Source: Candidatus Fibrimonadaceae bacterium (GTDB lineage: Bacteria > Fibrobacterota > Fibrobacteria > Fibrobacterales > Fibrobacteraceae). Taken from it: a stretch of 64,000 nt of DNA. Within the stretch, counting starts at the first letter, position 1; every line of letters begins with the position of its first letter. Positions 35,868 through 53,643 of the stretch are shown here, in pieces. Location: positions 18,056 to 82,055 of the forward strand of contig JAITFP010000075.1 of NCBI GenBank assembly GCA_031281275.1. Reading direction: 5' to 3'. The translations under genes and the position numbers were made by a program. Below the pieces are notes generated by a model. That model made no database searches. It worked only from the letters and a program-made list of their open reading frames with translations, and had not been told where the DNA came from.

Positions 35868-36785
35868 ATGGTTAGCTTTCGTTATTCCGCACCTATAGCA
35901 GCAATGATTGGTATGTTGCTTTTCTCTTGTGCTCCTGAAATTAAGCCTTTGCCATCAGAAGATGAACTAAAAAGTTCCTCCTCTGTTATTCCAACTCCTC
36001 CAATTTCTTCTTCATCTAGCAAGGCAACGCAAGGAGGTGGGCAGCTAGCTCAATTGGATGTGATAATCCGCGATTTCTCAGCTCCAGCTAACAGTCTTGG
36101 AGAAAGACAGGCTGCTGGTTATACCGGCTATTATGGCTTTCAAGAATTTGACTACAGCAAAAGTACTCAACAAAGAGAATGCAACGCCAACGGAGCCACA
36201 AAAGGCATGGTTAAATATACATTGGATTACAGTCAGTGCAAAGCAGGAGAAGAGAGACGTAATTGCGCAAGACCCATACCTGCAGACCCACCTCCAGAAA
36301 AAATGTGCTATGGAAAAGATTTGCAAAACTGGTACACCGATGGCGAGCATACAAAAACCTTTCACGAAATAATAACCTTAACACTCAAAAATGGACTTTA
36401 CGAAATAGATACTGCCGGATATTTTCCCTTGGATAAATATCCAGATAGCGAGACTTTCGGTAAGCAGAATTCAGATGGCAATGGAGTGAGGCATAATTTT
36501 GGATTTACGGTTGCTGGCTCGGCGGAATTTAAGTATATGGAAGGCAATAACGATAACTTCTTTGCCTTTAGAGGCGATGATGATATGTGGATGTTTATAG
36601 ATGGAGAGTTGGTAATGGATTTAGGCGGTGTTCATCAGGCTTTATCAGATTCAGTTAACATAGATGCCGTAGCAAGCAAAAGAGGTTGGGAAGATGGTTC
36701 TAACCATACAATAAACTTTTTCTATGCAGAAAGGCAAACTGCGGCATCAAATTTAATGCTTCGTTTTAGGCTTACTGGTCTTTAA
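35868..36785 (+). CDS. fibro-slime domain lipoprotein (PA14-like)
   Basis: 305 aa. LLFSCAPE lipobox. FGFTVAGSAEFKY...FAFRGDDDMWMFIDGELVMDLGGVHQA is the fibro-slime (TIGR02148-type) signature. Confidence 0.75.
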   Translation: MVSFRYSAPIAAMIGMLLFSCAPEIKPLPSEDELKSSSSVIPTPPISSSSSKATQGGGQLAQLDVIIRDFSAPANSLGERQAAGYTGYYGFQEFDYSKSTQQRECNANGATKGMVKYTLDYSQCKAGEERRNCARPIPADPPPEKMCYGKDLQNWYTDGEHTKTFHEIITLTLKNGLYEIDTAGYFPLDKYPDSETFGKQNSDGNGVRHNFGFTVAGSAEFKYMEGNNDNFFAFRGDDDMWMFIDGELVMDLGGVHQALSDSVNIDAVASKRGWEDGSNHTINFFYAERQTAASNLMLRFRLTGL

Positions 36786-39700
36786 GCAGCCAAAAAACTC
36801 CCGTCAAGTTTTTCTATTGAATCTGCAATATCCTTTCCGCCCGAAAAATAAATTCCATCGGAATTTTCTTCATTTACACCTCGTATAAAAATATAATAAA
36901 CTCCGCCAAATTTTTCTTTGAAATTGAAGTTTTCGTATATTTGCTCTAACCAGCGTTTTAGTGCGGCTGCGTAGATATAATATTGCAAATGATAAGCACT
37001 ATTACGCATAGCTTCTTCCATTCCAGCATTTGAAAAATCGCCGAGGCTGTTTGATTTCCAGTCTAGAATATAATATTTTCCGTCTTTGCCCAAAAATACC
37101 AAATCCATTGCACCTTTTATGTATTTTGCGAGCAATTCCTCATTTTCAAAATTCAAGATTTTTTCTTTCATTATTTCTTTTATTTTTTTCAAATCCAAAT
37201 TCTCTGCTTTCATAAAAAAATTCAATTCCGCTGCCCTGTTGCTAGCTTCTATTTCACAAAGTTTTCCGGCTTCGCCTAAATTTTTATTCAAAATTAGTTT
37301 AACCCGTTTTTCAACCCAGGCTTTTCTTTTTTCTCCCTCAGCCGTATTTTTGGAAAATTCCTTAAAGCCGCCCAATTTGCTTTCCACCAAATTGCGAATT
37401 TCATTTTCGTTTGCATCAAAATCCACATTCTCAAAAATACTGTGCAAAAGAGTTCCCATCACTTTGCCAGCTGGAATTTTTATCTCTGCCTCTTGCAAAA
37501 TGTGAATATGGTCTTTATGTTCCAAATTTAGCGAAATTGATGAGAAACTCGTATGTTGCCAAGCTGGAACTATTTGGAAATTTTTCGATTTAGGCGGTTT
37601 TAACTGCTGGTCTTGCTCGTTTTCTGAATTTAATTTGGAACTTTTTGGATATTCAATATCTGCAAAGCTATTCACTATCTGTATATTTTCATCTTCAGAT
37701 ATTTTGCTGCAAATTTTTTGCCCCGTAGAATAGATTTCTTTATAAGCATATACTATATATAATCTGTAAATAGGGCGCGTAACTGCTACATAAAAATTTC
37801 TTGCAGATTCTTGCAGAATTTCCTTTTGTTCTTTTGATTTTGCATTATCACTACCTTTGATTATTTTTCTATTGGAAATTTCATATTCCACAATAATATC
37901 ATTTTCATTTTCGTTATGATAAACTGGTGGCGATTTTTCATAAATAGATTTACCTGGCATTTCACCAGCAAGCATTATGTCTGGAACAAAAACTACTGGG
38001 AATTCCAAGCCTTTTGAAGTATGAATAGTCATAATTTGAACCGCATCATCGTCTGTTTCCAATTTTTCCTCAATTTCTTCGCCGCTCGCACTTTCAATCA
38101 ATTCTGCAAATCTCCTCAACATTCTTTCGGGAACTCTGCCAAATAGCGTTTCTTCTTCATTTAAAATCCATATAAGCTGCCTTAAATTTGTTGCATTTCT
38201 CTCGCCATTTTTTGCCTTTCGTATTTTTCCCCAAAGATTGCAAGAATCAAAAAACGAATTTATAGCCCGCATTATTCCATAACGCTTCCATGTATCAAAT
38301 GCCTCCGCAAAAGGTTTTATGTCTTCTATGGATAATTCTTTTGTGGATACGTCTCTTGTTTCCATCAGTGCTGCTTTTACTTGGCTCTCCTTTTGGCAGT
38401 GCACAAAAGCCCTTAACAGGCGTACAATATAATCTGCGGCATTGCTTTTGAATACGCTATCTGAGCGGCGAATAATTGCAGGAATGTTTTTTTTGTTTTT
38501 TCTAAGGGCATCTCTATATTCTCTTGCCTCTACATTTGTTCTTGTTAAAATTGCTATATCTCTTGCCTTTATCCTTCTAGTTTTATTCGTATCTTTATCA
38601 GATATTTCCGTATTGGTTGAATACAGCAAGCGAGCTATTTCTTGTACAATTTCCGGTTTAATGGAATTAAACTCCTGAGTTTCTTTGCTCTTATATTCTA
38701 CCTTTCGCACTACAAGCGGTTTTTGCTCTTTGCCGTTTATTGTAAGTTCTGGCAGATTTTTTTTCCCAGATTCAATAATTTTGTACTCTATTTTTTCATT
38801 TCCAAAAGGATTTTCTATATCAAAAATTTTATTCAATGCGTATAATAATCTTTTTTGCGTACGAAAATTTTCCCCTAATGGATATTGGAATTTTGCTTCT
38901 TTTTTTGCGTGTAAGTAGGTATCAATATCTCCGCCTCTAAATCTGTAAATAGCTTGCTTTGGGTCTCCAATCATAAAAAACGATTTGCCCTTAAACAGAT
39001 AACTGAATATTTCGAATTGCATTTTATCTGTGTCTTGAAATTCATCTATCAAAATTGCTTTATATTTTTTTTGCACGGCTTCAAAAAGTTTTTTTTCGCT
39101 ATCTTTATCTTTTTTCACCGCTTTATATGCATTTATTATTAAATCGTTATAACCCATAACTCTTAATTTTTTCTTTTCCACTTGCAAGGTTTCCAAAAAC
39201 TCCTTCCCCATTTTATACTGCAACTTCGCAACTAAATTTTCTTCATTTTTCCCAAGTTCTTTAAATTTTTCAAGGTTATTATTATATTCTTGGAATAAAG
39301 GATTTTTGTCTATATATCTTTTCCCAATTTCACCGCCCTTATTAAATATCACATTTTCTTTCTCTACCGCCGCTTTAAGCCGCAAATAATTTTCTGTTAT
39401 ATAACTCACATCTTCATATTTTATTTTTGCAGCGGGAAAATTGATGACGTTCTCTATTCCCGTTTTTAAAATGTCTGGAGAAAATTTTGAAGGCAAATCT
39501 TTTATTTCTTCATTTTCTAATTTTTCAATTTCCTTTCGCCAAAAATCTGCTACTATTCTATCTTCTATACCTCTTTGATTTTGAACAAATTCCATTTCTT
39601 CAAAATTTCCAATTTCAAAATCAAATTCACTGAGCAACCTTCTGCAAAAGCCGTGAATGGTGAAAACAGGCATTTCGTCTATGCGAGCAATGGCATCTAA

Positions 39701-39961
39701 CAAATTTGCTTTTTGTTCCAGAGTTAAACTTTCGCCGCTACTTGAGGTATATTCCTCTCTAATCCTTTCAGCGGTCTTTTTTTTAAGTTCTGCGGTAGCA
39801 GCTTCCGTGAAAGTGATCAAAACTATTTTTTCTATAGGCAAAAGCTCTTTCAAAAGACGAAAAACTATTAACCCTATGGTATATGTTTTGCCTGTCCCAG
39901 CACTAGCTTCTATGAGGACTTTTTCGTTTAGCGGCAGGGCGTTGATGTTAAGAGGTTGCAT
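36782..39961 (-). CDS. recB: exodeoxyribonuclease V beta subunit (RecB-type helicase-nuclease)
   Basis: 1059 aa. VLIEASAGTGKTYTI Walker A, ILIDEFQDTD, UvrD-type helicase motifs, and a C-terminal nuclease GAMDLVFLGKDGKYYILDWKSN. Confidence 0.85.
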   Translation of the reverse strand: MQPLNINALPLNEKVLIEASAGTGKTYTIGLIVFRLLKELLPIEKIVLITFTEAATAELKKKTAERIREEYTSSSGESLTLEQKANLLDAIARIDEMPVFTIHGFCRRLLSEFDFEIGNFEEMEFVQNQRGIEDRIVADFWRKEIEKLENEEIKDLPSKFSPDILKTGIENVINFPAAKIKYEDVSYITENYLRLKAAVEKENVIFNKGGEIGKRYIDKNPLFQEYNNNLEKFKELGKNEENLVAKLQYKMGKEFLETLQVEKKKLRVMGYNDLIINAYKAVKKDKDSEKKLFEAVQKKYKAILIDEFQDTDKMQFEIFSYLFKGKSFFMIGDPKQAIYRFRGGDIDTYLHAKKEAKFQYPLGENFRTQKRLLYALNKIFDIENPFGNEKIEYKIIESGKKNLPELTINGKEQKPLVVRKVEYKSKETQEFNSIKPEIVQEIARLLYSTNTEISDKDTNKTRRIKARDIAILTRTNVEAREYRDALRKNKKNIPAIIRRSDSVFKSNAADYIVRLLRAFVHCQKESQVKAALMETRDVSTKELSIEDIKPFAEAFDTWKRYGIMRAINSFFDSCNLWGKIRKAKNGERNATNLRQLIWILNEEETLFGRVPERMLRRFAELIESASGEEIEEKLETDDDAVQIMTIHTSKGLEFPVVFVPDIMLAGEMPGKSIYEKSPPVYHNENENDIIVEYEISNRKIIKGSDNAKSKEQKEILQESARNFYVAVTRPIYRLYIVYAYKEIYSTGQKICSKISEDENIQIVNSFADIEYPKSSKLNSENEQDQQLKPPKSKNFQIVPAWQHTSFSSISLNLEHKDHIHILQEAEIKIPAGKVMGTLLHSIFENVDFDANENEIRNLVESKLGGFKEFSKNTAEGEKRKAWVEKRVKLILNKNLGEAGKLCEIEASNRAAELNFFMKAENLDLKKIKEIMKEKILNFENEELLAKYIKGAMDLVFLGKDGKYYILDWKSNSLGDFSNAGMEEAMRNSAYHLQYYIYAAALKRWLEQIYENFNFKEKFGGVYYIFIRGVNEENSDGIYFSGGKDIADSIEKLDGSFLAA

Positions 39962-40026: not shown

Positions 40027-40037
40027 TTTACTATATT
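40027..40037 (+). promoter_or_regulatory. TTTACTATATT element 18 nt upstream of the ATG at 40056
   Basis: The same variant as upstream of recC and of 31882. AGAGG RBS between. Confidence 0.3.
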
Positions 40038-40055
40038 AACAAATAGAGGTTATTT

Positions 40056-40313: not shown

Positions 40314-40468
40314 TGACAAACAATGCGATTACGTACAGATTTAATTTTACGGACGAAGTAAAAAAATATGTTTATGATTATCAAAAAGGTCTAGATAAAA
40401 GTGATAGCCCAAATACTAGACGTTTGGGTAGAATACTATTTGATTATTTGAATGAAGATGAGAAATAG
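40313..40468 (+). CDS. small hypothetical protein (51 aa), TAATG-coupled to the preceding ORF
   Basis: MTNNAITYRFNFTDEVKKYVYDYQKGLDKSDSPNTRRLGRILFDYLNEDEK. Below the ORF-track cutoff; read by hand. Confidence 0.25.
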   Translation: MTNNAITYRFNFTDEVKKYVYDYQKGLDKSDSPNTRRLGRILFDYLNEDEK

Positions 40469-40478
40469 GGAGGTTAAT

Positions 40479-40604
40479 ATGAAACAAATAACTTGTGAAT
40501 TGCTAAACGACAATGAAACAGTTTTTTCACTTATGTTCCACAGGATTTGGCAGAACGGGAAAGCATACCTAGTAGGTAGTGTTAGCCCTGATAGCCCTTT
40601 TTAA
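40479..40604 (+). CDS. small hypothetical protein (41 aa)
   Basis: GGGAGG RBS 5 nt upstream. MKQITCELLNDNETVFSLMFHRIWQNGKAYLVGSVSPDSPF. Confidence 0.25.
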   Translation: MKQITCELLNDNETVFSLMFHRIWQNGKAYLVGSVSPDSPF

Positions 40605-40615
40605 TTTTCTATATT
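40605..40615 (+). promoter_or_regulatory. TTTTCTATATT element 6 nt upstream of the ATG at 40622
   Basis: Exact consensus copy. Confidence 0.35.
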
Positions 40616-40621
40616 TAAGCT

Positions 40622-40729
40622 ATGACCCCAAACCCTAAAACCCATTTCGCCCCTCTTGCAGAAGATCTAGGTAAGAGTTTGGCTATTTGTATTGCTATTG
40701 AACAAATAGCAAAGGGTTTGGCAAGGTGA
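40622..40729 (+). CDS. possible 35-aa leaderless ORF (or 5' leader of the following gene)
   Basis: MTPNPKTHFAPLAEDLGKSLAICIAIEQIAKGLAR. Supported only by the motif position. Confidence 0.15.
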   Translation: MTPNPKTHFAPLAEDLGKSLAICIAIEQIAKGLAR

Positions 40730-40757
40730 ACAAAAATGGAGAAAGGAGAAAGATAAA

Positions 40758-41231
40758 ATGGAAATTCATAGATCAGATTTTCGTCCCAAAAGAATTATTT
40801 CTGTTAATTATGAATCATTTGAATGGTTTATAAACTGCCTTATAATTCTTAGCATTGCTCTTGCCGTTATAGAGTTTATATCGGCAGAATCTTATCAGTC
40901 ATTTATTTATATCCAATGTTCAATTTTGGGCATTTTTATATCAGAAATGGTTATAAAATATATTGCATTTGGCAAAGGGCTTTTCAAAAGTTGGAATCTT
41001 TTTGATTTTTTATCAGTGGTTTTAATTGTTATTTGCGAGATATTATTTATTTATGGAGGTTTAGCAACTATTTTACGAATTGTCCGAATAATTTTACGTT
41101 CTTTGCGATTTTTATTAAAAGCTAAACAAAATAAAGAGTATCTAGCAAAATTGGAAGAATCTTATAAGCAAATTCAAGAGGGGAAGAAAAGAACTCTTAC
41201 TATGGAAGAATTGGAGGATTTAGAAAAATGA
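40758..41231 (+). CDS. voltage-sensor-domain (S1-S4 of Ion_trans family) membrane protein with a YefM/Phd-like C-terminal tail; sits in the antitoxin position upstream of yoeB
   Basis: 157 aa. S2-S3 GIFISEMVIKYIAFGKGLFKSWNLFDFLSVVLIV (compare NaChBac-type F..E...R..A....FF+S.WNWFDFLIV). S4 LRIVRIILRSLRFLLK. No S5-P-S6. Tail NKEYLAKLEESYKQIQEGKKRTLTMEELEDLEK. ATGA overlap with yoeB. Confidence 0.55.
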   Translation: MEIHRSDFRPKRIISVNYESFEWFINCLIILSIALAVIEFISAESYQSFIYIQCSILGIFISEMVIKYIAFGKGLFKSWNLFDFLSVVLIVICEILFIYGGLATILRIVRIILRSLRFLLKAKQNKEYLAKLEESYKQIQEGKKRTLTMEELEDLEK

Positions 41232-41488
41232 AACCTATTTTTTCCGAAAAAGCTTGGCAAGAATATACTGAATGGCAAAATCAGGATAAAAAAACTATTA
41301 AACGGATAAATGAACTTATAAAAGATATTCGAAGAAATGGCTTTAGCGAAGGCATTGGCAAGCCAGAACCTTTAAAACACAAAGGGGTTTGGAGCCGCAG
41401 AATTGACGATTATAATAGATTTGTTTATACTGGCAACGAAAATAGAGATTTGGAAATAATATCCTGCAAGGGTCATTACGATTCCTAA
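41228..41488 (+). CDS. yoeB: type II toxin YoeB/Txe family mRNA interferase
   Basis: 86 aa. FSEKAWQEYTEWQNQDKKTIKRINELIKDIRRNGFSEGIGKPEPLKH...WSRRIDDYNRFVY...ISCKGHY closely follows E. coli YoeB as remembered. Confidence 0.85.
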   Translation: MKPIFSEKAWQEYTEWQNQDKKTIKRINELIKDIRRNGFSEGIGKPEPLKHKGVWSRRIDDYNRFVYTGNENRDLEIISCKGHYDS

Positions 41489-41523
41489 GTAACTTCATTC
41501 AACAATAGGAAAACAAATCAACA

Positions 41524-41535
41524 TTTTTCTATATT
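41524..41535 (+). promoter_or_regulatory. TTTTTCTATATT element 6 nt upstream of the ATG at 41542
   Basis: Exact consensus copy. Confidence 0.4.
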
Positions 41536-41541
41536 CCCAAT

Positions 41542-42150
41542 ATGGAAAAATACCAGATTATGATACAAAAACATCTAAAAAAATTAGACGAAAAAATTGA
41601 AATATTTATCAAATCGGGAAAACATTTACGAAATATCGCATTGATAGGCGTGGTATTTGCTGTAATAATAACAGTGAAAATTATAAATGCAATATTTGGG
41701 CAAACTTATGGTTCCGCAACAATCTATGGCAAAACATATAAAACCATTGTTATAGGCAACAAAACCTGGATGGCAGAGAATTTGAATCACGAAACACGAT
41801 TTTCAAAATGTTATGATAACGAATTCAGAAACTGCTACAAATATGGCAGATTATATAATTGGTACACAGCCCAAAAAATATGCCCTGAGGGTTGGCATTT
41901 GCCAGCAAATAACGAATGGGATGGGTTCTTTGCATCCTTGCTTGGTGGCATCGGTGTTCCCTATCCTACCGGCGACAGCACTATAGGTGCCAAATACTAC
42001 AATATTGACCATAGCGGCTATTGGTGGACTTCCACAAATTACGATATGGAAAATGCCATTGCCCGTAATATATACATAGATGAAGAACGCATTAAATGGG
42101 ACAAATTCGATAAAATAGGCTTGTTCAGTGTGCGGTGTGTTAAGAATTAA
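41542..42150 (+). CDS. membrane-anchored 'Fibrobacter succinogenes major paralogous domain' (FISUMP, TIGR02145-type) protein
   Basis: 202 aa with an N-terminal TM. IGNKTWMAENLN...YGRLYNWYTAQKICPEGWHLPANNEWD...GYWWTST. The 3' end overlaps the recC 3' end by 11 nt. Confidence 0.7.
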   Translation: MEKYQIMIQKHLKKLDEKIEIFIKSGKHLRNIALIGVVFAVIITVKIINAIFGQTYGSATIYGKTYKTIVIGNKTWMAENLNHETRFSKCYDNEFRNCYKYGRLYNWYTAQKICPEGWHLPANNEWDGFFASLLGGIGVPYPTGDSTIGAKYYNIDHSGYWWTSTNYDMENAIARNIYIDEERIKWDKFDKIGLFSVRCVKN

Positions 42151-45100
42151 AATACCCCCCAAACAACCTCTCAGAGCAACTCACAAATTCCCGTTCCACC
42201 CCCAAATCCTTCAAAGACTTTGCACTCCCTAAAACTTTTTTCGCATATTGAGAAAATTCTGCGAGTTCCCCATTAAAACCATTGCCGAAAATTTTTCCTT
42301 CCGCAACTTTTATTTTTTCTTCTTCGCTTTTATCAGATTTTAAATATTCCCAAGCAGCATCTGGGAAAATCGGCAACATTCTTTTTTCCAATTCCTGTTT
42401 TAGCTCCCATAATTTATTTAAAATTTCATTTGCTTCTTCTTTTGACATACCTCGCAATTCTATTACTGCATCTTTTAAAAATATTTTCGTATTTTGATTT
42501 TCATTCTTGGCATTTAAATTCAAATGATATAACCAATGTTTTAAACGATATTTGCCTTTATCTTTGTTCGGATAAATCCAATATGTTCCTTCCTTTTCAT
42601 TTTTTGCCTTTTCCTTTAACTCTTCCATTTCAATTGCCGTGCTGTCTATAATTTTGCTTGCAAATTTGCCGCTTGGCAAACTGCCTTTTAATTGGGAAAT
42701 TTTAACTTCTTCCATATATTTGTCGCGATTTTCATTTTTTAAAATCAAATCCGATAATTTCCACTTATCCAGCGCACTCTCTACAATGAAAGGTTCCTTA
42801 TTTTCCAATAGCTCAATAGGTTCTGGCAATTCTATTTTGCATACATATTTTAAAAAATACTTTGGAGCATCAGATAAAATTCTAAATAAAATATCAATAT
42901 CTCTTTTTTCTTCTGCTTCTTTGAATGAGGGTTTCCATTCCCAAATATTGCAATCAAAATTTTCAGAACTATGCCACCTATCATCATAAGTGCTCAATGT
43001 TCCGTTGAAATATTTTCTTGAAAAAGGTTGCAATGGATGTTTTACTATTAAATCTTTTTGTTCTATTCCATATTGTTCTTTCAAATTTTTCAAAAACATA
43101 ATCACTACGCTGGAAGGTTCAAGGTCTTCTGCAGTTTTTTCGCTTTGACCAATCCAACTTATGTAAAGTTTTTCCCTTGCACTGCAAATTAGCTCCAAAA
43201 ACATCAAGCGTTCCTCATTTGCCACATCTTTGTCGCCCTGTTTGTATTCTGTCATAAGGCTAATATCTTTGATTTGTCTTTGACGCGGAAATTCTTTGCT
43301 GTTCATTCCAATGCAGCAAATAACCTTGTGCGGAACAGCTCGTATTGTTTCAAAATTTGAAAAAGATACTTTGCCTGTCATAGAATATGATGATTTTGTG
43401 CTTGATTCCATTTTTCTCTGCAAAGCATTTTTCATCGTTGAAAAGCTAATTTGTACTTTTGAATTATTGCCAAAGCCTATGCATATTTCCTCTTTTAAAG
43501 AATTCCAAACATCTATGACTTTTTGGTAAGGGTCATCTTGGTCCTCGTTAAAATCAGTTGCATCATCGCCAAAAAATGCTGGCAAATTTTCCTTTAAAAA
43601 AACATCCCAGCCTTCTATTGATTTTTCCTTTTTGCTCTCAACATCAAATTTTTCCAAGGTTTTTACAAAATGCGCAAACTCGCCTAAAATATAAGCAGAA
43701 TTTCCCTCTATATCTGGATAGCAATAATCGCCAAGTTCAGAAAATCCATTTTCCGAAATCATAAAAAAACCCGCTTTCAACTGTTCAAATCCACCTGCAA
43801 AAGAATAATTAGGTGCTGGATCCGAGCTGTTAAGGCTATGCCGAATAGCATTTTCTTTAACCCATTTTTCCAAACGATCCCTATCGTTTGAATCCAACTC
43901 CCTGCCTTGCACGAACATTGAGTATTCAAACAAAGCGAGAATTTCTGGAGCTTCGTACCTACCGTCAATTTGAGAAAAGAGCAAATTCAAAAGTTGTGCG
44001 GTTTTATCGTATTTTTTTATATCTCTGTCTGCTATTTGAAATGGAATATCGTACCTGCGAAAAACGCTTTCTATTGAACTTGCATAAGTTTCAATGTTTG
44101 GAGAAACAACGGCTATATCGCTTGGCTTCAATGTTTTTTCCTCTGCAAATAAATCAAGCAAATAATCGCATAAAACTTCGATTTCTCTTAAAGGGGAAAA
44201 GCAACTGTTGAATGTTAGTCCTGTGTTTAAGGTACAAGGGACAAGGGATAAGGTATAAGATTTGTTGTTGTCTTGAATTATGTCATTTTGAATTTTTGAA
44301 AGCAAGGTTTCACTTGAATTCTTTTTTTCTGAGTTCAAAAATTCACAGGATATTTTTCCTTGTTCTTCGTACTGCGATATTTGCTCATAAATTACCTGCG
44401 CGCTTCTACCTAAATTTGCTATCAGTCTGTTGCCTAAATCCCAATATAGTTCATTTTCATTTGCAATTTTATTATTTGCCCAAGCCTCTTTTCGCATTCT
44501 TGCAATTTTCTTATCGCTAACAGAAGCCCCGATATATTCCTCGCTAACCTGAAGCAAATATAAATTCACTTTGCTGCCAGCCTTCGATAAATGGATTAAT
44601 GTTGATAGGTGAATTGGAGCAATTGACAAAGGGGCAAAAATGAAAATTTGTTTGGGCAAAAACTTTTTTTCGTTTTTTAATTCACTTTCAATAGATTTAT
44701 AAAGCTCATATATATTTTGTTCGTCTTTATATTTTTCTTTGAGTTCAAGCCAAAGTTTTTTTTGCCATTCTTCGTTTTTTGTAATGCTCTCATCTGGTTT
44801 ATTCTCTGTCCATTTTTCAATTAACTCTGGTCTGTAAATTTGATATGCAAAAAAGAGAGAAGCCAATTCACTAGCAAATAAGAATGTTTTTTTTTCGCCT
44901 TCCAGCAAAGCGTAAATTGCCCATACCAAATTGTGTGGGTTGTATATATTTTCTTTTTCGTCTTTTTTGTTTTGAGATAAATTGTAGGCACATTGCATTA
45001 AAAGCCCAACTAAGGGTTTGAAAGGCAATGCAGTCCATATTCCATATTTGTCTGCACAGGTTTTTTTCAAATATTCCTGCAAACCTTTTGATTCGCAAAT

Positions 45101-45226
45101 TATCAAACTACCACCAGTTAAAAATCCGCCTTTGGCGGCAGTTGCACCAAAGTTGCTTTTGGATAAAATATCTTCTAAAAACTTGTTAGCAAGCGTTTCT
45201 ATGTTTGTATGGAGGTATGTTTGCAT
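42140..45226 (-). CDS. recC: exodeoxyribonuclease V gamma subunit (RecC-like)
   Basis: 1028 aa. Size, the N-terminal MQTYLHTNIETLANKF (compare M..V.HSN.L..L...) and synteny with recB. Assignment is weaker than for recB. Confidence 0.65.
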   Translation of the reverse strand: MQTYLHTNIETLANKFLEDILSKSNFGATAAKGGFLTGGSLIICESKGLQEYLKKTCADKYGIWTALPFKPLVGLLMQCAYNLSQNKKDEKENIYNPHNLVWAIYALLEGEKKTFLFASELASLFFAYQIYRPELIEKWTENKPDESITKNEEWQKKLWLELKEKYKDEQNIYELYKSIESELKNEKKFLPKQIFIFAPLSIAPIHLSTLIHLSKAGSKVNLYLLQVSEEYIGASVSDKKIARMRKEAWANNKIANENELYWDLGNRLIANLGRSAQVIYEQISQYEEQGKISCEFLNSEKKNSSETLLSKIQNDIIQDNNKSYTLSLVPCTLNTGLTFNSCFSPLREIEVLCDYLLDLFAEEKTLKPSDIAVVSPNIETYASSIESVFRRYDIPFQIADRDIKKYDKTAQLLNLLFSQIDGRYEAPEILALFEYSMFVQGRELDSNDRDRLEKWVKENAIRHSLNSSDPAPNYSFAGGFEQLKAGFFMISENGFSELGDYCYPDIEGNSAYILGEFAHFVKTLEKFDVESKKEKSIEGWDVFLKENLPAFFGDDATDFNEDQDDPYQKVIDVWNSLKEEICIGFGNNSKVQISFSTMKNALQRKMESSTKSSYSMTGKVSFSNFETIRAVPHKVICCIGMNSKEFPRQRQIKDISLMTEYKQGDKDVANEERLMFLELICSAREKLYISWIGQSEKTAEDLEPSSVVIMFLKNLKEQYGIEQKDLIVKHPLQPFSRKYFNGTLSTYDDRWHSSENFDCNIWEWKPSFKEAEEKRDIDILFRILSDAPKYFLKYVCKIELPEPIELLENKEPFIVESALDKWKLSDLILKNENRDKYMEEVKISQLKGSLPSGKFASKIIDSTAIEMEELKEKAKNEKEGTYWIYPNKDKGKYRLKHWLYHLNLNAKNENQNTKIFLKDAVIELRGMSKEEANEILNKLWELKQELEKRMLPIFPDAAWEYLKSDKSEEEKIKVAEGKIFGNGFNGELAEFSQYAKKVLGSAKSLKDLGVEREFVSCSERLFGGYFNS

Positions 45227-45246: not shown

Positions 45247-46263
45247 TTAAACCTTCCTAAAATACCCTTCCTTCTCTGGCAAAAGAGAATCGGGGATTAA
45301 TTCTCTTGGAATTAGAACTGTCATTTTGTATTCGGCAACTTTAGGATGTTCTCCCGCCTGTAAACATAAAACGCCAGCTTTTATTATTGATGCTAATATT
45401 TTTTCGTAATAAGCAACAGAATTGTTGCAGTTTGTTTCTATCCAAGAATCTATATATTTTTCTACTATTTCTCTCTGCATTCCGTCAACCGCCATCTGTA
45501 TGCCAGTTTCTAAAAAATCTTTTTTCAAAAGTTTTTCTTTATCTATAAAGTTTTCCAAAGCAAGTATGCCCTCTCTACGGGCTATTTCGCAAAGTTTAAT
45601 TAACTTAATACATATTCTCTCGGCTTCCATTTCAAAAATTTTCTTCATTCCTATTTCCAAAACAGATTCATACTTGTAACGTGTTCTTGTTGCTCCACCC
45701 TGTACTTCTGTTGCTTCTATAACTTGTTCTTTAAGAGATTCTGGCACCAGCATAAACAGCCAGTCTTCCTGTTTAACCGCTTCAATGTACATATCTATGG
45801 TCTTAAATTTTTCTGGTACTTTAGTAAGCAACCACGCTGTCTTTTTAACCGCTTCAAACCAGAATTCTGCCGTTCTGATTTTTTCTGGCACCTCAGCGAG
45901 CAACCACTCATCTTTTTTAACCACTTCAAGCCAGAGTTCGGTTGTTCTAAATTTTTCTGGTATATATTCTTGTACCAATTCCCACGAATGCCTTTTAACT
46001 ATTTCAATATATAGTTCCACAGTCTTAGCATTTTCTGGTATGTATTCAAGTTCAAGAAAAACGCACCGGACTTTAATCGCTTCAAGACATACTTCCGTAG
46101 TTCTAAGTTCTTCTGGTACATAACGAAGTGCATAACGGTTTTCCTTTACTACTTTAAGAGCCTGCGCAACTGTTTTAATTTTTTTCTTCGGTTTGACTCT
46201 TTGGTAGTCTAATAAATTCTCTGTGAGCAAATCTATTTCTTCTTTGCTTAATATATCACCCAT
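45247..46263 (-). CDS. soluble protein: ~5 DUF4116-type 24-aa repeats followed by a TM-less MotA-cytoplasmic-domain-like region
   Basis: 338 aa. Repeats VPEKIRTAEFWFEAVKKTAWLLTK and similar. C-terminal ARREGILALENFID...FLETGIQMAVDGMQREIVEKY...IIKAGVLCLQAGEHPKVAEYKMTVLIP. No TM-length hydrophobic stretch. Confidence 0.55.
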   Translation of the reverse strand: MGDILSKEEIDLLTENLLDYQRVKPKKKIKTVAQALKVVKENRYALRYVPEELRTTEVCLEAIKVRCVFLELEYIPENAKTVELYIEIVKRHSWELVQEYIPEKFRTTELWLEVVKKDEWLLAEVPEKIRTAEFWFEAVKKTAWLLTKVPEKFKTIDMYIEAVKQEDWLFMLVPESLKEQVIEATEVQGGATRTRYKYESVLEIGMKKIFEMEAERICIKLIKLCEIARREGILALENFIDKEKLLKKDFLETGIQMAVDGMQREIVEKYIDSWIETNCNNSVAYYEKILASIIKAGVLCLQAGEHPKVAEYKMTVLIPRELIPDSLLPEKEGYFRKV

Positions 46264-47323
46264 TTTTCACCTCCAACTCTTCTTGATACACCGCCTCAAA
46301 AACTTCATTTTTCAAAGATTCCGGTATATCATCGTCAAGCAAATCTTTTAGACGAATTGTTACAAAATCTTCTCCCCACCATTTGCGCTTAGATTTGACT
46401 ACCTCAATGTAAAGCTCAACTGTTTTTAGGCGTTTTGGCACATCTTTAATTGCGAATGGGCTATTCTTAACCGCTTCAAGGCAAAGTTCTTTTGTCTTAA
46501 ATTCTTTTGGCACAAATTCAAGTGCACAACCGTAGTGCTCGGTTGCCTCGGCACAGAGTTCTTGTGTCTTAAATTTTTCTGGCACATATTTAAGTGCCCA
46601 ACCATTCTGCTTAACTGCTTTAACACAGAGCTCTTCTGTTTTGAATTCTTCTGGTACAAATTCAAGCGCGCAGCCGTCTTGTTCAACTGCTTTGCGGCAA
46701 AATTCTTCTGTTTTGAATTCTTTTGGCACAAATTCAAGCGCACAGCCGTATTGCTCGGTTGCTTCTGTGCAAAGTTCTTTGGTTTTGAATTTTTCTGGTA
46801 CATATTCAAGCATAATACCGCAATTTTTTATTGCATTGCAACATATTTCTTCTGTTCTAAATGCTTCTGGTATAAATTGAATCAGCCAACCATATTGTTT
46901 AATTCCTTCGGGGTAGAATTCTGTCCAAGTTGGTAGCAGTTCCATAGGAATAATGGATTTTATAAAAATATCAGTCATGCGAGGGTTTTCACCTGACTGA
47001 AGGCTTAAAATTCCAGTTTTGATAACCGAGAACAATATTTTATTGTAGTACTCGCAATGACCGGAACTATTTGCTCCTATCCAGAAATCTAAATATTCTT
47101 CTATTTTTGCGTTCTCCATTCCATCAACCACCATCTGCAAAGCAAATTCCAAAGGGTCTCCGTTTGGGTCTTTTTCTTTGTCTATAAACTTTTCAATGGA
47201 CAAAAGCCCTTCTCTTCTACACATCATAGCGGCAAAGCATATACGAAAGTGTATCCTCTCGTATTCTTTTTTGAAAGCCTCCACAGTAGCTTTTTCTACG
47301 GCTGATTCATATTTGATAGTCAT
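46256..47323 (-). CDS. soluble protein: MotA-cytoplasmic-domain-like region followed by ~7 DUF4116-type repeats
   Basis: 355 aa from MTIKYESAV (AGGAGG RBS; the track ORF extends to 47368). CRREGLLSIEKFID...LEFALQMVVDGMENAKIEEY...VIKTGILSLQSGENPRMTDIFIKSIIP, then VPEKFKTKELCTEATEQYGCALEF repeats. Confidence 0.55.
   Translation of the reverse strand: MTIKYESAVEKATVEAFKKEYERIHFRICFAAMMCRREGLLSIEKFIDKEKDPNGDPLEFALQMVVDGMENAKIEEYLDFWIGANSSGHCEYYNKILFSVIKTGILSLQSGENPRMTDIFIKSIIPMELLPTWTEFYPEGIKQYGWLIQFIPEAFRTEEICCNAIKNCGIMLEYVPEKFKTKELCTEATEQYGCALEFVPKEFKTEEFCRKAVEQDGCALEFVPEEFKTEELCVKAVKQNGWALKYVPEKFKTQELCAEATEHYGCALEFVPKEFKTKELCLEAVKNSPFAIKDVPKRLKTVELYIEVVKSKRKWWGEDFVTIRLKDLLDDDIPESLKNEVFEAVYQEELEVKNG
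46430..46900. repeat. 72-nt-period in-frame tandem repeat array (DUF4116 units)
   Basis: TT(T/C)TGG(C/T)ACA(A/T)ATT(C/T)AAG recurs near 46505, 46575, 46647, 46719 and 46791. The units at ~46505 and ~46719 are near-identical. Confidence 0.7.
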
Positions 47324-47348
47324 TTTTTCACCTCCTTTCTGCTTATTT

Positions 47349-47969
47349 TTAGAAGGGCAGTTCGCCATTGAAGCATTTTCCCTCGTTTTCTAAGGCTCGT
47401 TTTGCTATCTCTATAGGCTCAATGCACCACTGAACAATTTCTGGAACAGCCACTTTAAGCTCTGCAATAGCCTTGCTAAAATATTCATCGTCATAATTAA
47501 TACTTTTGCAAAGATACGCTCGCGCCCGCCATATTCGAGCTTCAAGGCAGTCTGGATCTTTTTCAAGCGCAGCGGTGTAGCTTGTTATTGCTTCGTCATA
47601 GTCTTCATTGACAAAATATTCATCGGCTTTGGTTAGGAATTTAAGAATATGAATTGGTTTTTGTGCGAAATAACCGTTTTCAAAAACTAAAGTCTCGTAG
47701 CTTGCCTGTTTTGTGTTAGCTGCAATGAGTGCTTTTGCTTCTGCAGCATCTACATTGTATTGCAAGAATAAAGTTTCGGCAACCGTTTTCCAATCGGTTT
47801 CGCTGCTTGCTACGCTGTCAAATTTGCAAACACCGTCAATTTTGACTGTTATTGAGCGAAGCATCGCTACTGCTTCTTTTTCAATGGCGTTCAAAATTTT
47901 CTGGTCTGAGCGCAGGTCATAGATTCTGCTTGCTATGGCTTTTGCTTCTTGTTTTATTGTATCACCCAT
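47349..47969 (-). CDS. TPR-containing protein
   Basis: 206 aa. ADEYFVNEDYDEAITSYTAALEKDPDCLEARIWRARAYL is a TPR signature. AGGAGA RBS. First gene of a 3-gene operon. Confidence 0.55.
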   Translation of the reverse strand: MGDTIKQEAKAIASRIYDLRSDQKILNAIEKEAVAMLRSITVKIDGVCKFDSVASSETDWKTVAETLFLQYNVDAAEAKALIAANTKQASYETLVFENGYFAQKPIHILKFLTKADEYFVNEDYDEAITSYTAALEKDPDCLEARIWRARAYLCKSINYDDEYFSKAIAELKVAVPEIVQWCIEPIEIAKRALENEGKCFNGELPF

Positions 47970-48488: not shown

Positions 48489-50054
48489 TCAACACCCAAA
48501 AACTGTTATTTTATCATATTCTCTAACATACAATTTCTCTTCCCAGCTCTTGCTCACATCCCTGTCAAAAACAACAAGCCAGCCTCTTTTCGTTCCGCAT
48601 CTCTCCATATAAGCAGAAAGCTGAACCAAGCCTTCTGGAATGGTTTGCTCATTCTTTAATATCTTAAGCTCAATAGGATATTTTTTGCCTTCCCATTCTA
48701 TGCAAATATCAGCACGTTTTTTACCCAAAGCCATCTCTCTGGATATGCTGCCGCCGCCGTTTAGAACCCGCTGCAAAAAAGCTTGTATAACCAAATGCGG
48801 AGCGGCTTCATCGTACTGGTAAAAATTCTCTTTGTAACGCTTTATCCATATTTCGCTATTCTCACGCCAAAAAAACTGAAACTCGCGTAACAGAGTATCT
48901 ATATCTATTTTATCATCTTTCACATATTTGGGCAGGTTATCATCAGGTCTTTCAAGTTTAATGCTATCTTGCAACGAATAATTCAAGGCTCTTACTATCA
49001 CTTCAGCGTAAATCGGATTCGCAGGCTCAACAACGCCATTCTCGGAATCTCTTATCAAACCCAAATCCCTTGTGTATAGATAATCATCAGAACTTTTATC
49101 TATAAACATCTCGCCTAGTATAAGTGGTTCTATTATATTACGAACCCTATTTTCCTTTAGCCTCTCCATTAAACTGTCAAAATGCGTGCCCCTAGCTAAA
49201 ATTATGTTGTTGATTGCGGTTTTTGCCATTTCTATCGTTATGGGAATCGCGTAATCTTTTTTACAGATTTTTTCCACACATTCACGAGCTACTGCGTTTA
49301 CCAACCAGGGATGCCCTTGGGTTTGTTCATAAATGTAATCCGTTGCCTGTGCCTCAAAAACTTGCTTCGTTTCTTGTGTGTGTTGGTTGTAAAGCTCGGT
49401 CACATTTTCTTTCGTGAAATTTCTCAAATTCAAACTTTCGGTCACAATATTAAACGGGCTTGAACTGCCTAGCGTTTCGCTGTCACTCCTGATGTGGGCT
49501 TTATAGTCTCTTATATTCCTCATTCCAACAAGAGCAATGCTGTGAACAAATGGAGTTCTTGCACGGGAAACAAAACCATTCCGCAATTGTCTTAAAAAAG
49601 TGATTAAGGTTCCGTTGCTGAGGCAATCCGCTTCGTCAAAAAGTATAATCAAAGGCTTATCCAAAGAGCGGCAATAGTCCACAAGCGCAATGTTTAGCAC
49701 ATTTGACACTCTGCTACAATCCGCCTCCTTTGCAAAATCTGGTGGCAGACCTTGGATTTTTATGCAATCCTCTATATTTCTAACAATTTCGGGTATTCCC
49801 CTTTCTGGTTCGGTAAATGATTGCACTCCTTCTAAAGAACAATACAAAGCATGGTATTTGCCTTCTGCGTTTATTTTATCCGCAAGCTCCAGCAAGAGAG
49901 TTGTCTTTCCGCTCTGTCTTGAGGCATGGATAACGAAATATTGTTTTGAATCTATCAAATCCATTAATTCTTTGCAAATGCCACGCAAAGGGTCGAGCAT
50001 ATAATGTTCGTTTGTATTACAAGGACCTGCTATGTTGAAGTATTTTTGAGGCAT
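48489..50054 (-). CDS. AAA-type ATP-binding protein with C-terminal PD-(D/E)XK-like nuclease domain
   Basis: 521 aa from MPQKYFNIAGPCNTNEHYML (the track ORF extends to 50147). Walker A HASRQSGKTTLL, Walker B LIILFDEAD. C-terminal RADICIEWEGKKYPIELKILK (D..E.K). Confidence 0.6.
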   Translation of the reverse strand: MPQKYFNIAGPCNTNEHYMLDPLRGICKELMDLIDSKQYFVIHASRQSGKTTLLLELADKINAEGKYHALYCSLEGVQSFTEPERGIPEIVRNIEDCIKIQGLPPDFAKEADCSRVSNVLNIALVDYCRSLDKPLIILFDEADCLSNGTLITFLRQLRNGFVSRARTPFVHSIALVGMRNIRDYKAHIRSDSETLGSSSPFNIVTESLNLRNFTKENVTELYNQHTQETKQVFEAQATDYIYEQTQGHPWLVNAVARECVEKICKKDYAIPITIEMAKTAINNIILARGTHFDSLMERLKENRVRNIIEPLILGEMFIDKSSDDYLYTRDLGLIRDSENGVVEPANPIYAEVIVRALNYSLQDSIKLERPDDNLPKYVKDDKIDIDTLLREFQFFWRENSEIWIKRYKENFYQYDEAAPHLVIQAFLQRVLNGGGSISREMALGKKRADICIEWEGKKYPIELKILKNEQTIPEGLVQLSAYMERCGTKRGWLVVFDRDVSKSWEEKLYVREYDKITVFGC

Positions 50055-50061
50055 TAGGGGT

Positions 50062-50072
50062 AAAATAGAATT
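50062..50072 (-). promoter_or_regulatory. AATTCTATTTT element 7 nt upstream of the ATG at 50054
   Basis: Minus-strand reading TTCAAAATTCTATTTTACCCCTAATG. Supports the shorter start. Confidence 0.35.
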
Positions 50073-50285
50073 TTGAATCGCTCGTATAAGAGTGAGCTGG
50101 AAAAAAACGATTTTCGCAATATCTGCATAAATAGTGATATTCATCACAAATAATAAAAAAATTGCAAAAATAACTTAGCTTTTTGCATATCGCATGTTAT
50201 ATAGAGAAATCAAACTACAAAGTTTCTGGTGACGAGTGTCATGAAATTTAATTGTAGTTAAATGCCAAAAATAGGAGATTATATT

Positions 50286-51310: not shown

Positions 51311-51655
51311 TTATAATATAGAAACTCCTTCATCATCATTATCTGCCATATATTTTTTCATTACAATCTTGATTTTTGGAGTTATGAGTTCCTTGGGCAC
51401 AAATTCAATCGCATCGCCAGTTTGCTTTACCGCAGCAAGGCAAATCTCCGAGATTTTTAGTTCTACAGGCACATATTGAAGCGCACAGCCGTTTCTCTTC
51501 ACCGCAGCAAGGCAAAGTTCTGGGGTTTTGTGTTTAGATGGTACGTAAGCCAGTTCATAGCCCCATTGCTTTACAACGGCAAGGCATAATTCATAAGTTT
51601 TGAATTTTGTGGGAACGAATTTAAACGTATCGGAGTTATTTTTCACCATAATCAT
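51311..51655 (-). CDS. DUF4116-type repeat protein (~4 units)
   Basis: 114 aa from MIMVKNN. ATGA overlap with the upstream stop (51652-51655). VPSKHKTPELCLAAVKRNGCALQY repeats. Confidence 0.55.
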   Translation of the reverse strand: MIMVKNNSDTFKFVPTKFKTYELCLAVVKQWGYELAYVPSKHKTPELCLAAVKRNGCALQYVPVELKISEICLAAVKQTGDAIEFVPKELITPKIKIVMKKYMADNDDEGVSIL

Positions 51656-52380
51656 TTCCCCTTCACCAACAATTTCTCCACTTCTAACCTCATACTCTCT
51701 GGAACCCAATTTCTATTATAAGGATATGCTTTGCACGCCTCAAAGCACAATTCCACTGTTTTCAGATTTTCTGGAACCCTACTAAGAGCATCGCCGCAGC
51801 TTGTTACGAATGCTTTGCAAAATTCTGGAGTTATCAAGTCTTTTGGAACTAAGTTCAAGCTCATAATACTCCCAAGAGCATCGTCACTTTGCAGAACGGC
51901 GGCAAGGCACATTTCTGTTGTTCTCAAATTTTCTGGAACAGCTTCAAGATTACGCCAGTCTTTTTTCACAGCGGTTAGGCACAATTCCGACGTTTTCAAA
52001 TTTTCTGGAGTGCAATAAAAATCATTTAGACCGGAGTATTTTACATTTTTTACATTCCTTTTAATTATACGCTCCAAGCCTTCTTTGCGACTTATCAAGT
52101 CTTTTCGTTCTATGCGCAATTTAGAGTTTTCTTTAAGTAAATAATCAATTATGTCTGCCAAGCCATTGGGTAAAACGTAAAGAGGGTTTGCTGGCTCATT
52201 TCTGTGTTCATAATGCTCTTTATAATCCAGCAAAGCCTTTCTCATATTTATTTTCCAACTTATATTTTGCAGAATGTCTATTTTCTGCTCCATTGTGGTT
52301 CTATTATATTCATCGCAATAAGGGTCTAAACATTCCCTTAATTTGCCCAAAAGCTCGTTTAAATCTAAAGTTTCACTCAT
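51652..52380 (-). CDS. protein with N-terminal helical region and ~4 DUF4116-type repeats
   Basis: 242 aa from MSETLDL. I prefer this start because the 5 upstream codons of the track ORF fall inside the duplicated 25-bp promoter-region repeat. TPENLKTSELCLTAVKKDWRNLEA repeats. Confidence 0.5.
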   Translation of the reverse strand: MSETLDLNELLGKLRECLDPYCDEYNRTTMEQKIDILQNISWKINMRKALLDYKEHYEHRNEPANPLYVLPNGLADIIDYLLKENSKLRIERKDLISRKEGLERIIKRNVKNVKYSGLNDFYCTPENLKTSELCLTAVKKDWRNLEAVPENLRTTEMCLAAVLQSDDALGSIMSLNLVPKDLITPEFCKAFVTSCGDALSRVPENLKTVELCFEACKAYPYNRNWVPESMRLEVEKLLVKGK

Positions 52381-52386
52381 ATTTAC

Positions 52387-52411
52387 ATATAACATACAAT
52401 ATCCAAAAATG
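52387..52411. repeat. second copy of ATATAACATACAATATCCAAAAATG
   Basis: Identical to 48008-48032. Followed by GGTATTTTT...TTTTTCTATTTT as in copy 1, with a ~16-nt indel. Confidence 0.85.
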
Positions 52412-52448: not shown

Positions 52449-53642
52449 TTAGCTTTTTATGGCATTTTTCACCTCTCTTTTAATATATGCTGGCACATAT
52501 TTAAGCACATAGCCATTTTGTTTAACCGCTTCAATGCAAAGTTTAGCAGTTTTGAAGGCTTTAGGAACATATTTGAGCATATAACCATCTTGCTTAACCG
52601 CTTCAAGGCACATTTCCGCAGTCTTTAAGTTTTCTGGCACATATTGAAATGCCCAGCCACACCGCAGCTTTACCGCTTCATTGCAGAATTTAGCCGTTTT
52701 TATAGTTTCTGGCACATAGTTAAATGCATAGCTATTTTGCTTAATCGCTTCAAGATAGATTTTGGCAGTTTTGAGATTTTCTGGCACATATTCAAGCATT
52801 TTGCCCTCATTGCCTTGCATTGCTTTAAAACAGATTTTGGGAGTTTTTAGGGATTCTGGCACGTATTTAAATGCAGAGCAATTACTTTTAACCGCCTCAA
52901 GGCAGAGTTCCTCTGTTTTTAAATTTTCTGGCACATATTCAAGCCAGCAGCCGTTCTTTTTAACTGTTTCAAAATACATTTCCGCAGTCTTTAAGTTTTC
53001 TGGCACGTGTTTAAGCACATCAACTCCATTCATAACTGCTTCAAAGCAAAGTTCTGCGGTCTTGAGATTTTCTGGCACATATTCAAGCATCATCCCATCG
53101 CGCTTAACCGCTTCAAGGCAAAGTTCAGCGGTTTTTAGATTTTCTGGCACATATTTAAGGGCATCGCTATCTTGTTTAACTGCTTCAAGGCAGAGTTCAG
53201 CGGTTTTCAAATTTTCTGGCACATATCTAAGTATCCAGCCTTCGTGCTTAATCGCTTCAATGTAGAGTTCAGCGGTTTTTAAGTTTTCTGGCAATTCAAG
53301 CCAATCAACCCAACGGTATTTGGTGGAAATAGGCTTAGGCTCGGCAAGATTATGCAATGAGTTTATAAAATTCTTTATAGATTCTTGGGCGTGAGCAATA
53401 AATCTAGTTCCATCACAAGGAAATGTTTCTATGGCTTTAATTAAACCCTTTGTTCCTGCTTTCACAAGATGCTGCATAGGCGCTCTGTCTTTATATCTCA
53501 TTGCAATTTTCAAAACATAATTCATATTTGCGTCTATTAATTTTTTTCGCGCAGCACGGTCTTTTTTATTTTCCAATAAATGATATTCCTCTTCCATTGT
53601 TAAAGCTGGAATATCTTTGTATTTGTATTTTTCTTCATTCAT
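52449..53642 (-). CDS. sigma-70 region-2-like N-terminal module fused to 11 DUF4116-type repeats (no region 3/4)
   Basis: 397 aa from MNEEKYKYK (the ATG lies 1 nt after the trkA stop). LTMEEEYHLL...ARKKLIDANMNYVLKIAMRYKDRAPMQHLVKAGTKGLIKAIETFPCDGTRFIAHAQESIKNFI, then 11 copies of VPENLKTAELCLEAVKQxGxxLxY. Confidence 0.55.
   Translation of the reverse strand: MNEEKYKYKDIPALTMEEEYHLLENKKDRAARKKLIDANMNYVLKIAMRYKDRAPMQHLVKAGTKGLIKAIETFPCDGTRFIAHAQESIKNFINSLHNLAEPKPISTKYRWVDWLELPENLKTAELYIEAIKHEGWILRYVPENLKTAELCLEAVKQDSDALKYVPENLKTAELCLEAVKRDGMMLEYVPENLKTAELCFEAVMNGVDVLKHVPENLKTAEMYFETVKKNGCWLEYVPENLKTEELCLEAVKSNCSAFKYVPESLKTPKICFKAMQGNEGKMLEYVPENLKTAKIYLEAIKQNSYAFNYVPETIKTAKFCNEAVKLRCGWAFQYVPENLKTAEMCLEAVKQDGYMLKYVPKAFKTAKLCIEAVKQNGYVLKYVPAYIKREVKNAIKS
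52480..53300. repeat. 72-nt-period in-frame tandem repeat array (11 units)
   Basis: TTTTCTGGCACATAT(T/C) recurs at roughly 72-nt spacing (near 52631, 52777, 52923, 52995, 53067, 53147, 53209, with degenerate copies between). Several units share stretches of more than 20 nt identity. Confidence 0.75.
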
Positions 53643-53643
53643 A

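Follow-up and report, generated by a model that had tools for sequence, protein, structure and literature searches.

Soluble MotA-like domains fused to DUF4116 repeats in a three-gene unit of Fibrobacterota

The TPR-A-B gene unit and its MotA-like domains

The window analysed here is a 64-kb stretch of contig JAITFP010000075.1 from a Candidatus Fibrimonadaceae bacterium, and all coordinates refer to positions in this whole stretch unless another contig is named. It contains a unit of three genes, all on the minus strand: a gene for a TPR protein (47349..47969, 206 amino acids), followed by gene A (46256..47323, 355 amino acids) and gene B (45247..46263, 338 amino acids). Both A and B join a soluble, contiguous form of the torque-generating interface domain of the flagellar stator protein MotA to an array of DUF4116 repeats. 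An initial annotation, made from the sequence alone, had described three tightly coupled open reading frames (ORFs) at these positions, and the ORF coordinates, the overlap of A and B and the upstream ribosome-binding site agree with it; the peptide strings that it quoted are present in the A and B translations.

The 25-nt spacer between the stop codon of the TPR gene and the start of A (47324..47348) holds the ribosome-binding site AAAGGAGGTG, and the upstream sequence reads AAAGGAGGTGAAAAAATG / AAAGGAGGTGAAAAA before the A ATG at 47323. The B ATG overlaps the A TGA in ATGGGTGA (46256..46263), an arrangement of translational coupling, and GGAGGTG lies 5 nt upstream of the B ATG. The NCBI protein call for A (P0277) is also 355 amino acids long. 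A longer start (ATG 47368, 370 amino acids) was rejected, as no ribosome-binding site precedes it and the resulting ORF would overlap the TPR gene. A scan for promoters and terminators returned matches at shuffle level only.

The closest relative is a 184-kb metagenome contig (L008) in which the order orf141 (reverse)-TPR-A-B is kept, with identities of 85, 76 and 85% for TPR, A and B. In the window, recC begins 20 nt past B, but in L008 the two are separated by a further gene; thus, the conserved unit is TPR-A-B, and recC was rejected as a member. Ratios of nonsynonymous to synonymous substitution (dN/dS) against L008 are 0.23 for TPR, 0.28 for A and 0.29 for B (0.09 for RecC), which indicates that TPR, A and B are working genes under purifying selection.

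The MotA-like domain occupies residues 1 to ~140 of A (46904..47323; CRREGLLSIE ... VVDG ... GILSLQSGENPR) and residues 200-325 of B (45289..45666; ARREGILALE ... AVDG ... GVLCLQAGEHPK). NCBIfam equivalog models for MotA, MotP and PomA match B at residues 201-277 (E 1.2e-10) and A at residues 34-98 (E 2.8e-7), in both cases at MotA ~62-140, with MotA scores of 40.8 and 29.9 bits (range 25-41) that lie below the full-length cut-offs of 237-394. When PDB sequences were searched with phmmer, only MotA and PomA chains were returned, among them Bacillus subtilis MotA for B (6ysl, E 2.2e-5). Residues 200-276 of B align to residues 61-134 of this protein, within the loop between transmembrane (TM) helices TM2 and TM3, and residues 289-320 align weakly to 217-248, in the tail after TM4. 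These are the two places to which the initial annotation had assigned the B. subtilis MotA strings. For A, the matches to PDB MotA chains (6ysf/8ucs) have an E-value of 3e-3, and the loop and tail stretches both align.

Residues 277-288 of B stand for MotA ~135-216, so that a link of 12 residues takes the place of ~82 residues comprising TM3, a loop and TM4. Because loop and tail align as two stretches 12 residues apart, the TM3-TM4 hairpin is replaced by this short link. The proposed absence of TM helices is confirmed for both proteins, given that no 19-residue Kyte-Doolittle window is ≥1.6 (B peaks at 1.37 and A at 0.77). Pfam recognises only DUF4116 in A and B, and the MotA_ExbB channel domain (PF01618) has no match in either at E ≤ 1. 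Matches of the domain are exclusively to MotA, PomA and MotP and never to ExbB or TolQ. The motif RREGxLxLE, on which we place the equivalents of Escherichia coli MotA R90 and E98, is present in both A and B.

An AlphaFold2 model of the B domain, built from a 51-sequence alignment, has a pLDDT of 90.5 and a pTM of 0.83. The top 20 Foldseek matches of this model in the PDB are all MotA or PomA (probability 1.00, TMq 0.55-0.60), and those that follow have probabilities <0.2. Only MotA and PomA structures are therefore retrieved with confidence, and the homology of A and B to the MotA cytoplasmic loop and C-terminal tail that the initial annotation had proposed is borne out by profiles, PDB sequences and the fold model. 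The full-length B model (pLDDT 81.7, pTM 0.48) consists of a low-confidence N-terminal helix, a helical-hairpin solenoid, a disordered linker (residues 189-201) and the MotA-like domain.

Compared with MotA and PomA (PDB 6ysl, 6ysf, 8ucs, 6ykm, 8brd), A and B share a homologous cytoplasmic loop and C-terminal tail, the motifs ARREGxLxLE, VDG and GxLxIQxGxNPR, and the R90/E98 equivalents. Unlike them, A and B lack TM1-TM2 and every other TM helix, have no ion channel and no MotB partner, and are fused to DUF4116 repeats. They cannot convert ion flow into torque. No OmpA/MotB-type gene that could represent an adjacent motB or pomB occurs among the annotated window ORFs, where the neighbours of A and B encode the TPR protein, RecC, an AAA_35 ATPase and DUF4116 proteins. 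The cytoplasmic part of MotA that A and B retain has been named the ‘torque-generating interface’ (TGI; PMC12505986).

The DUF4116 array of A (residues 151-318, 46370..46873) has seven 24-residue repeats of the form VPExFKTxELCxEAVxQxGxALEF, and that of B (residues 49-180, 45724..46119) has five repeats and one partial repeat, in agreement with the counts of about seven and five first given. The Pfam matches are well above the cut-off of 24.9 bits in both A (145 bits, E 4.4e-43) and B (62.4 bits, E 3e-17). The domain order is permuted as had been described: in A the MotA-like domain precedes the repeats and in B it follows them. The B repeats are modelled as helical hairpins with a period of 24 residues (pLDDT 85-96), and hairpin repeats of this length are shared with DUF4116 (PF13475) proteins at large. 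The DUF4116 family is uncharacterised and rarely mentioned in the literature, in which we did not find its pairing with a MotA domain described.

The TPR protein has a conserved N-terminal domain (residues 1 to ~105), a TPR segment (~108-170) and a conserved C-terminal G-E-L-P-F. Its Pfam TPR matches (TPR_16, 34.0 bits against a cut-off of 32.7; TPR_19, 25.8 against 25) exceed threshold over one region, residues 112-153. The N-terminal domain has no significant match in Pfam, PDB or PHROG; its best PDB matches (ATP synthase gamma, E 0.016; YefM antitoxin, E 0.11) were judged to be due to chance. At two related loci the protein is split, with its N-terminal domain and its TPR half encoded by individual ORFs on either side of B-like genes (L009 942-1247 and 5758-6120; L018 6607-6840 and 8389-8787). 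Both of these TPR halves have G-x-[LF]-P-F at their C-terminus.

In the window and L008 an A-like gene is followed directly by a B-like gene, and L017 and L019 have the reverse order. The architecture class of A and B is shared with P0011, P0021, P0024 and others, and P0011 (locus L010) is a single protein that comprises a MotA domain, an EIDAL motif, DUF4116 repeats and a second MotA domain. Adjacency, the P0011 fusion and the split halves of the TPR protein support a functional link among the TPR, A and B products. On the same sequence grounds, a physical assembly of A and B is plausible.

A FliM-like peptide and the wider family of soluble MotA domains

Residues 1-15 of B (46219..46263, minus strand) form a FliM-like peptide of the EIDAL type (MGDILSKEEIDLLTE). 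From Met1 onwards, the B start MGDILSKEEIDLL is identical at 10 of 14 positions to the N-terminus of E. coli FliM, MGDSILSQAEIDALL (sequence from bioRxiv 10.1101/781468). In FliM, the EIDAL peptide is the high-affinity site for phosphorylated CheY (CheY-P), and it also binds FlhG (PMC6946799; bioRxiv 2022.04.21.489128). Aligned as MGD-ILSKEEIDLL against MGDSILSQAEIDALL, both peptides begin at Met1, and that of B is predicted as a short, flexible helix (residues 7-21, low confidence). FliM differs in having a CheC-like middle domain and a C-terminal SpoA domain, for which B has no FliM or FliMN_C match in Pfam or NCBIfam, and in the fourth motif residue, which is A in FliM and L in B. A phmmer search of PDB with the first 30 residues of B, a query that is too short, gave no match.

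The EIDAL-type motif recurs among relatives, also at the ends of family proteins whose architectures are unrelated. It is kept in B-like proteins (P0039, P0045, P0054 and those of L009 and L018), lies at the junction within the fusion P0011, and stands at the extreme C-terminus both of P0012, a protein with five domain copies, and of several standalone proteins of ~145 amino acids. The 297 family proteins contain 12 matches, where 300 shuffles gave 0.2 on average and never more than 2, and background ORFs totalling 248,000 residues contain one unrelated match. We infer from this peptide a putative link of B to CheY-P or FlhG.

The MotA-like domains of A and B belong to a family of more than 1,000 clusters. 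Single-domain word-index searches gave only a handful of matches, and the family emerged through exhaustive profile and alignment queries. At E ≤ 1e-3 an exhaustive profile search yielded 2,779 representatives, of which 1,108 had E ≤ 1e-10, and a word-index search with a broader alignment yielded at least 3,460 clusters at E ≤ 1e-5, mostly proteins of ~125 amino acids. The local family hidden Markov model scores the window proteins at 209 and 175 bits, the latter being the A domain. None of the top 150 representatives or of 117 newly listed cluster proteins has the four-TM layout of MotA.

Copy number varies within the top 150, where 65 proteins have one domain, 65 have two, 10 have three, one has four and six have five. 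The maximum of five equals the number of MotA subunits in the stator. In a Pfam scan of 100 top representatives, FliG_C was found in 48, LRR in 26, DUF4116 in nine, TPR in three and FliG_M in three; proteins with five copies have one or two FliG_C domains at their C-terminal end. P0012, P0013, P0014, P0016 and P0020 (among them the Treponema sp. metagenome-assembled genome (MAG) proteins MCL2233222.1 and MCL2231746.1) have 820-1,700 amino acids and exactly five tandem domains followed by FliG_C; P0012 also carries TPR and FliG_M and ends in VLSKAEIDALLNA.

At five distinct Treponema/Spirochaetia loci, a standalone gene of ~124-125 codons lies directly downstream of a gene that encodes only FliG_C (171-182 amino acids), the two overlapping or being 14 nt apart. 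Such pairs from termite-gut Treponema and Spirochaetia occur at L003 7456-8372 (L003/L046), L005 7471-8375 (L005/L006), L033 and L037. The torque-helix motif MSxRAAxMLKEDME is intact in the proteins that consist of FliG_C alone. Of 415 copies of the soluble domain, 342 have R at the position of R90, and 384 have E or D at that of E98. In MotA, R90 and E98 contact FliG D288/D289 and R281 (PMC12505986). The soluble domains of the Treponema pairs and five-copy fusions are 25-35% identical to those of A and B and are members of the same family. A and B differ from them in having DUF4116 arrays and a TPR partner and in lacking FliG_C in cis or in an adjacent gene. The family thus recombines three flagellar switch and stator modules, the MotA TGI, FliG_C and the FliM N-terminal peptide, into soluble proteins.

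Named sources of the family are Treponema sp., Breznakiellaceae, Spirochaetia MAGs and Fibromonadales. Its members are annotated as ‘hypothetical protein’, ‘DUF4116 domain-containing protein’ or, by the automatic annotation of JGI, ‘flagellar motor component MotA’, which is misleading. A scan of GTDB species genomes with the B domain returned no relatives, and the DNA pattern FEYG..VDGT, which gave ~30 chance matches, recovered true members from four MAGs only, all of Treponema/Spirochaetia. No Pfam model covers the soluble domain. We found neither soluble MotA domains nor MotA-FliG_C fusions described in the literature that we searched, and the word ‘soluble’ is absent from a 2025 survey of MotA homologues (PMC12505986). 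The family is large and apparently undescribed; its size and the FliM-like start of B had both escaped the initial annotation.

Two further contexts were noted. On a Spirochaetia contig (L007), the gene for a two-copy soluble MotA-domain protein (P0158; 1344-2582, minus strand) lies ~5 kb from a FliM paralogue whose N-terminus has no EIDAL motif. A 90-kb myovirus-like contig (Ga0072941_1005105) with genes for tail sheath, tail tube, an HNH endonuclease, YopX and a DNA methylase encodes, among small ORFs, P0007 (L056 8001-8672), a soluble MotA-domain protein of 223 amino acids. P0007 is the closest relative of the A domain outside Fibromonadales and may be a phage-borne stator mimic; its placement fits a domain that acts in trans.

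Host lineage and surrounding genes

At 90% identity, RecC from the window falls into one cluster with proteins from Fibromonadales MAGs, and RecB also clusters with Fibromonadales MAG proteins. B-like proteins are likewise annotated from Fibromonadales and Fibromonadaceae MAGs, and the GC content of the window is 38%. All examined Fibromonadaceae encode flagellar and chemotaxis genes, and the loss of these genes is confined to Fibrobacteraceae (Abdul Rahman et al., PMC4704652). The initial annotation had assumed a non-flagellated host, in which a free MotA cytoplasmic domain would be unexpected. This premise does not hold, as RecC clusters with an order in which the Fibromonadaceae genomes examined encode flagella, and in such a lineage the MotA-like domain is not ‘orphaned’ from the flagellum.

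Upstream of the unit, on the minus strand, lies a gene for a 552-residue AAA_35/STAND-like ATPase (48489-50147) with a weak restriction-endonuclease-fold tail (Tox-REase-9, E 0.013). This ATPase has no PADLOC match, and a 24%-identical paralogue is encoded between B and recC in L008 (8401-10035). Two more DUF4116 genes on the same strand follow. The first (51652-52395) encodes 247 amino acids with three repeats and an N-terminal half without assignment, and its product is 84% identical in L008, where it also adjoins a sigma-like protein. The second (52449-53708) encodes a protein of 419 amino acids with eleven near-identical repeats (VPENLKTAELCLEAVK). Its N-terminal segment resembles sigma-70 region 2 (Sigma70_r2, E 4.9e-4), although the score of 20.3 bits falls short of the cut-off of 24; this is the sigma-like protein of the initial annotation, and its paralogues are abundant in related loci. 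The sigma-like head suggests that DUF4116 arrays display borrowed interaction domains. In related genomes, DUF4116 genes are massively paralogous and interleaved with Fib_succ_major paralogues.

Elsewhere, the window holds genes for type VI secretion, GH5 and GH18 enzymes, SMC, FtsK, RecB/RecC and TrkAH. The baseplate genes tssF and tssG are on the plus strand at the left window end (1146-3241), and two adjacent GH5 cellulase genes (28315-31763) and a GH18 gene (19171-20202) are on the minus strand. Three large ORFs within 21037-27615 have no Pfam match. The interval 36782-45226 contains a recB-like gene (39961..36782) and recC (45226..42140), with two plus-strand genes between them, for an ion-transport-domain protein and a Fib_succ_major protein.

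Candidate functions and their meaning

So, what might a stator domain do without its membrane? Our best explanation, which we hold at about even odds (a probability of roughly 0.5), is that A and B are soluble, FliG-binding, chemotaxis-linked accessory proteins of the flagellar motor. Gene fusion, gene neighbourhood and conserved contact residues together lead us to expect that the soluble domain binds FliG_C. As no FliG_C is encoded in this operon, FliG in the C-ring of a flagellated host would be the simplest target. The MotA-like domain would bind the C-terminal (torque-helix) domain of FliG in trans, either in the C-ring of the presumably flagellated Fibromonadales host or in a FliG_C paralogue. 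The EIDAL peptide of B would dock CheY-P (or FlhG), and the DUF4116 solenoids and the TPR protein would scaffold the A/B complex. At the rotor, A and B might compete with or stand in for membrane stators and thereby modulate motor output, serving as a chemotaxis-controlled brake, clutch or adaptor.

There are precedents for regulation at this site. EpsE and MotI/DgrA, like YcgR, are soluble regulators at the stator-rotor interface. Similar to what we propose for A and B, all of these proteins are cytoplasmic, are proposed to bind FliG and/or MotA, and alter motor output upon a signal. They differ in having unrelated folds (PilZ, glycosyltransferase), none of which is stator-derived, and in their input, which is cyclic di-GMP or biofilm state rather than a CheY-docking peptide. 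For YcgR, action on FliG and/or MotA is proposed in PMC10140304.

Several observations weigh against a role of A and B at the motor. The Foldseek E-values are modest (2e-3), which we attribute to a match that spans the deleted hairpin, and the pTM of 0.48 leaves the domain arrangement in the full-length B model uncertain. The motif of B reads EIDLL, not EIDAL. The flagellated host is suggested by family-level literature rather than by the flagellar genes of the host itself; there is no FliG_C in the operon or in any ORF of ≥40 amino acids in the 64-kb window, and no flagellar gene near the unit or elsewhere in the window. The Treponema gene pairs sit among metabolic genes, outside flagellar operons. 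Finally, LRR or TPR arrays form part of many relatives, and such fusions would equally fit a generic interaction module.

The most serious alternative takes up this last point. The MotA-like domain and FliG_C could have been co-opted as a generic heterodimerisation pair with no flagellar role, with DUF4116, LRR or TPR arrays giving specificity, and A and B could then scaffold signalling, the regulation of surface functions or polymer degradation, or a conflict system. The frequency of fusions to LRR (26 of 100), TPR and DUF4116 arrays and the non-flagellar gene neighbourhoods are as expected for such a pair, as are the massive paralogy of DUF4116 genes, interleaved with Fib_succ_major paralogues, and the sub-threshold sigma-70 region 2-like head of the neighbouring DUF4116 protein. 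However, both the FliG-contact charges and the FliG torque-helix motif are conserved, a CheY-docking peptide of the FliM type recurs in the family, and all named taxa are from flagellated lineages (Treponema, Spirochaetia, Fibromonadales). Moreover, an operon that lacks a FliG_C partner cannot operate a self-contained pair. We consider co-option possible but, on balance, doubtful.

The presence of P0007 in a myovirus-like contig raises the question of a mobile or phage conflict function, in which a soluble stator mimic halts rotation, for example to block the adsorption of flagellotropic phages or superinfection, and the cellular copies are domesticated. The ATPase with a nuclease-like tail that adjoins the unit, its paralogue between B and recC in L008, and matches of DUF4116 segments to PHROG families would be in keeping with this. 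We think it unlikely, given that TPR, A and B have no PADLOC match to a defence family (Zorya ZorA or other known systems), that scans of IMG/VR with A4, P0007, P0227 and P0008 returned no relatives, and that the unit is syntenic, under purifying selection and in a chromosomal context.

A marginally poorer case can be made for a free MotA cytoplasmic domain retained for a non-flagellar purpose in a non-flagellated Fibrobacter. The Fib_succ_major protein and the GH5 cellulases do place the window in Fibrobacterota, and the window is without flagellar genes; the clustering of RecC and RecB with Fibromonadales MAGs, the flagella of the Fibromonadaceae examined and the GC content of 38% make such a host very improbable. 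Decay into functionless stator-gene remnants, for which loss of the membrane part is the sole argument, is effectively refuted by intact ORFs with ribosome-binding sites, dN/dS ratios of 0.28-0.29, the existence of thousands of TM-less relatives from which the hairpin is precisely excised, and a compact, confident domain model (pLDDT 90.5).

A more speculative and doubtful reading is that the family as a whole constitutes an undescribed cytoplasmic stator-rotor interface system. Five-copy proteins would fold into single-chain pseudo-pentamers, imitating the MotA5 cog and engaging FliG_C domains of the same chain or of a neighbouring protein, EIDAL peptides would bring CheY-P control, and motor bias would be set in this way in spirochaetes and Fibromonadales. 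In Fibromonadales the system would be represented by A and B, with DUF4116 solenoids and a TPR protein in place of FliG_C in cis and the real C-ring as target. If this is true, a candidate case for its action is the as yet unexplained asymmetry of the two polar motors in spirochaetes. The family may further bear on the origin of the torque-generating interface.

It is at the contact of MotA R90/E98 with the torque helix of FliG that ion flow is turned into rotation, and this contact is known only within a membrane complex. Should binding to FliG hold, a widespread soluble copy of the stator side would represent a new class of motor regulator and would be a natural soluble reagent for study of the stator-rotor interface. 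The family is concentrated in termite-gut spirochaetes and Fibromonadales, for which motility in the viscous gut is ecologically central.

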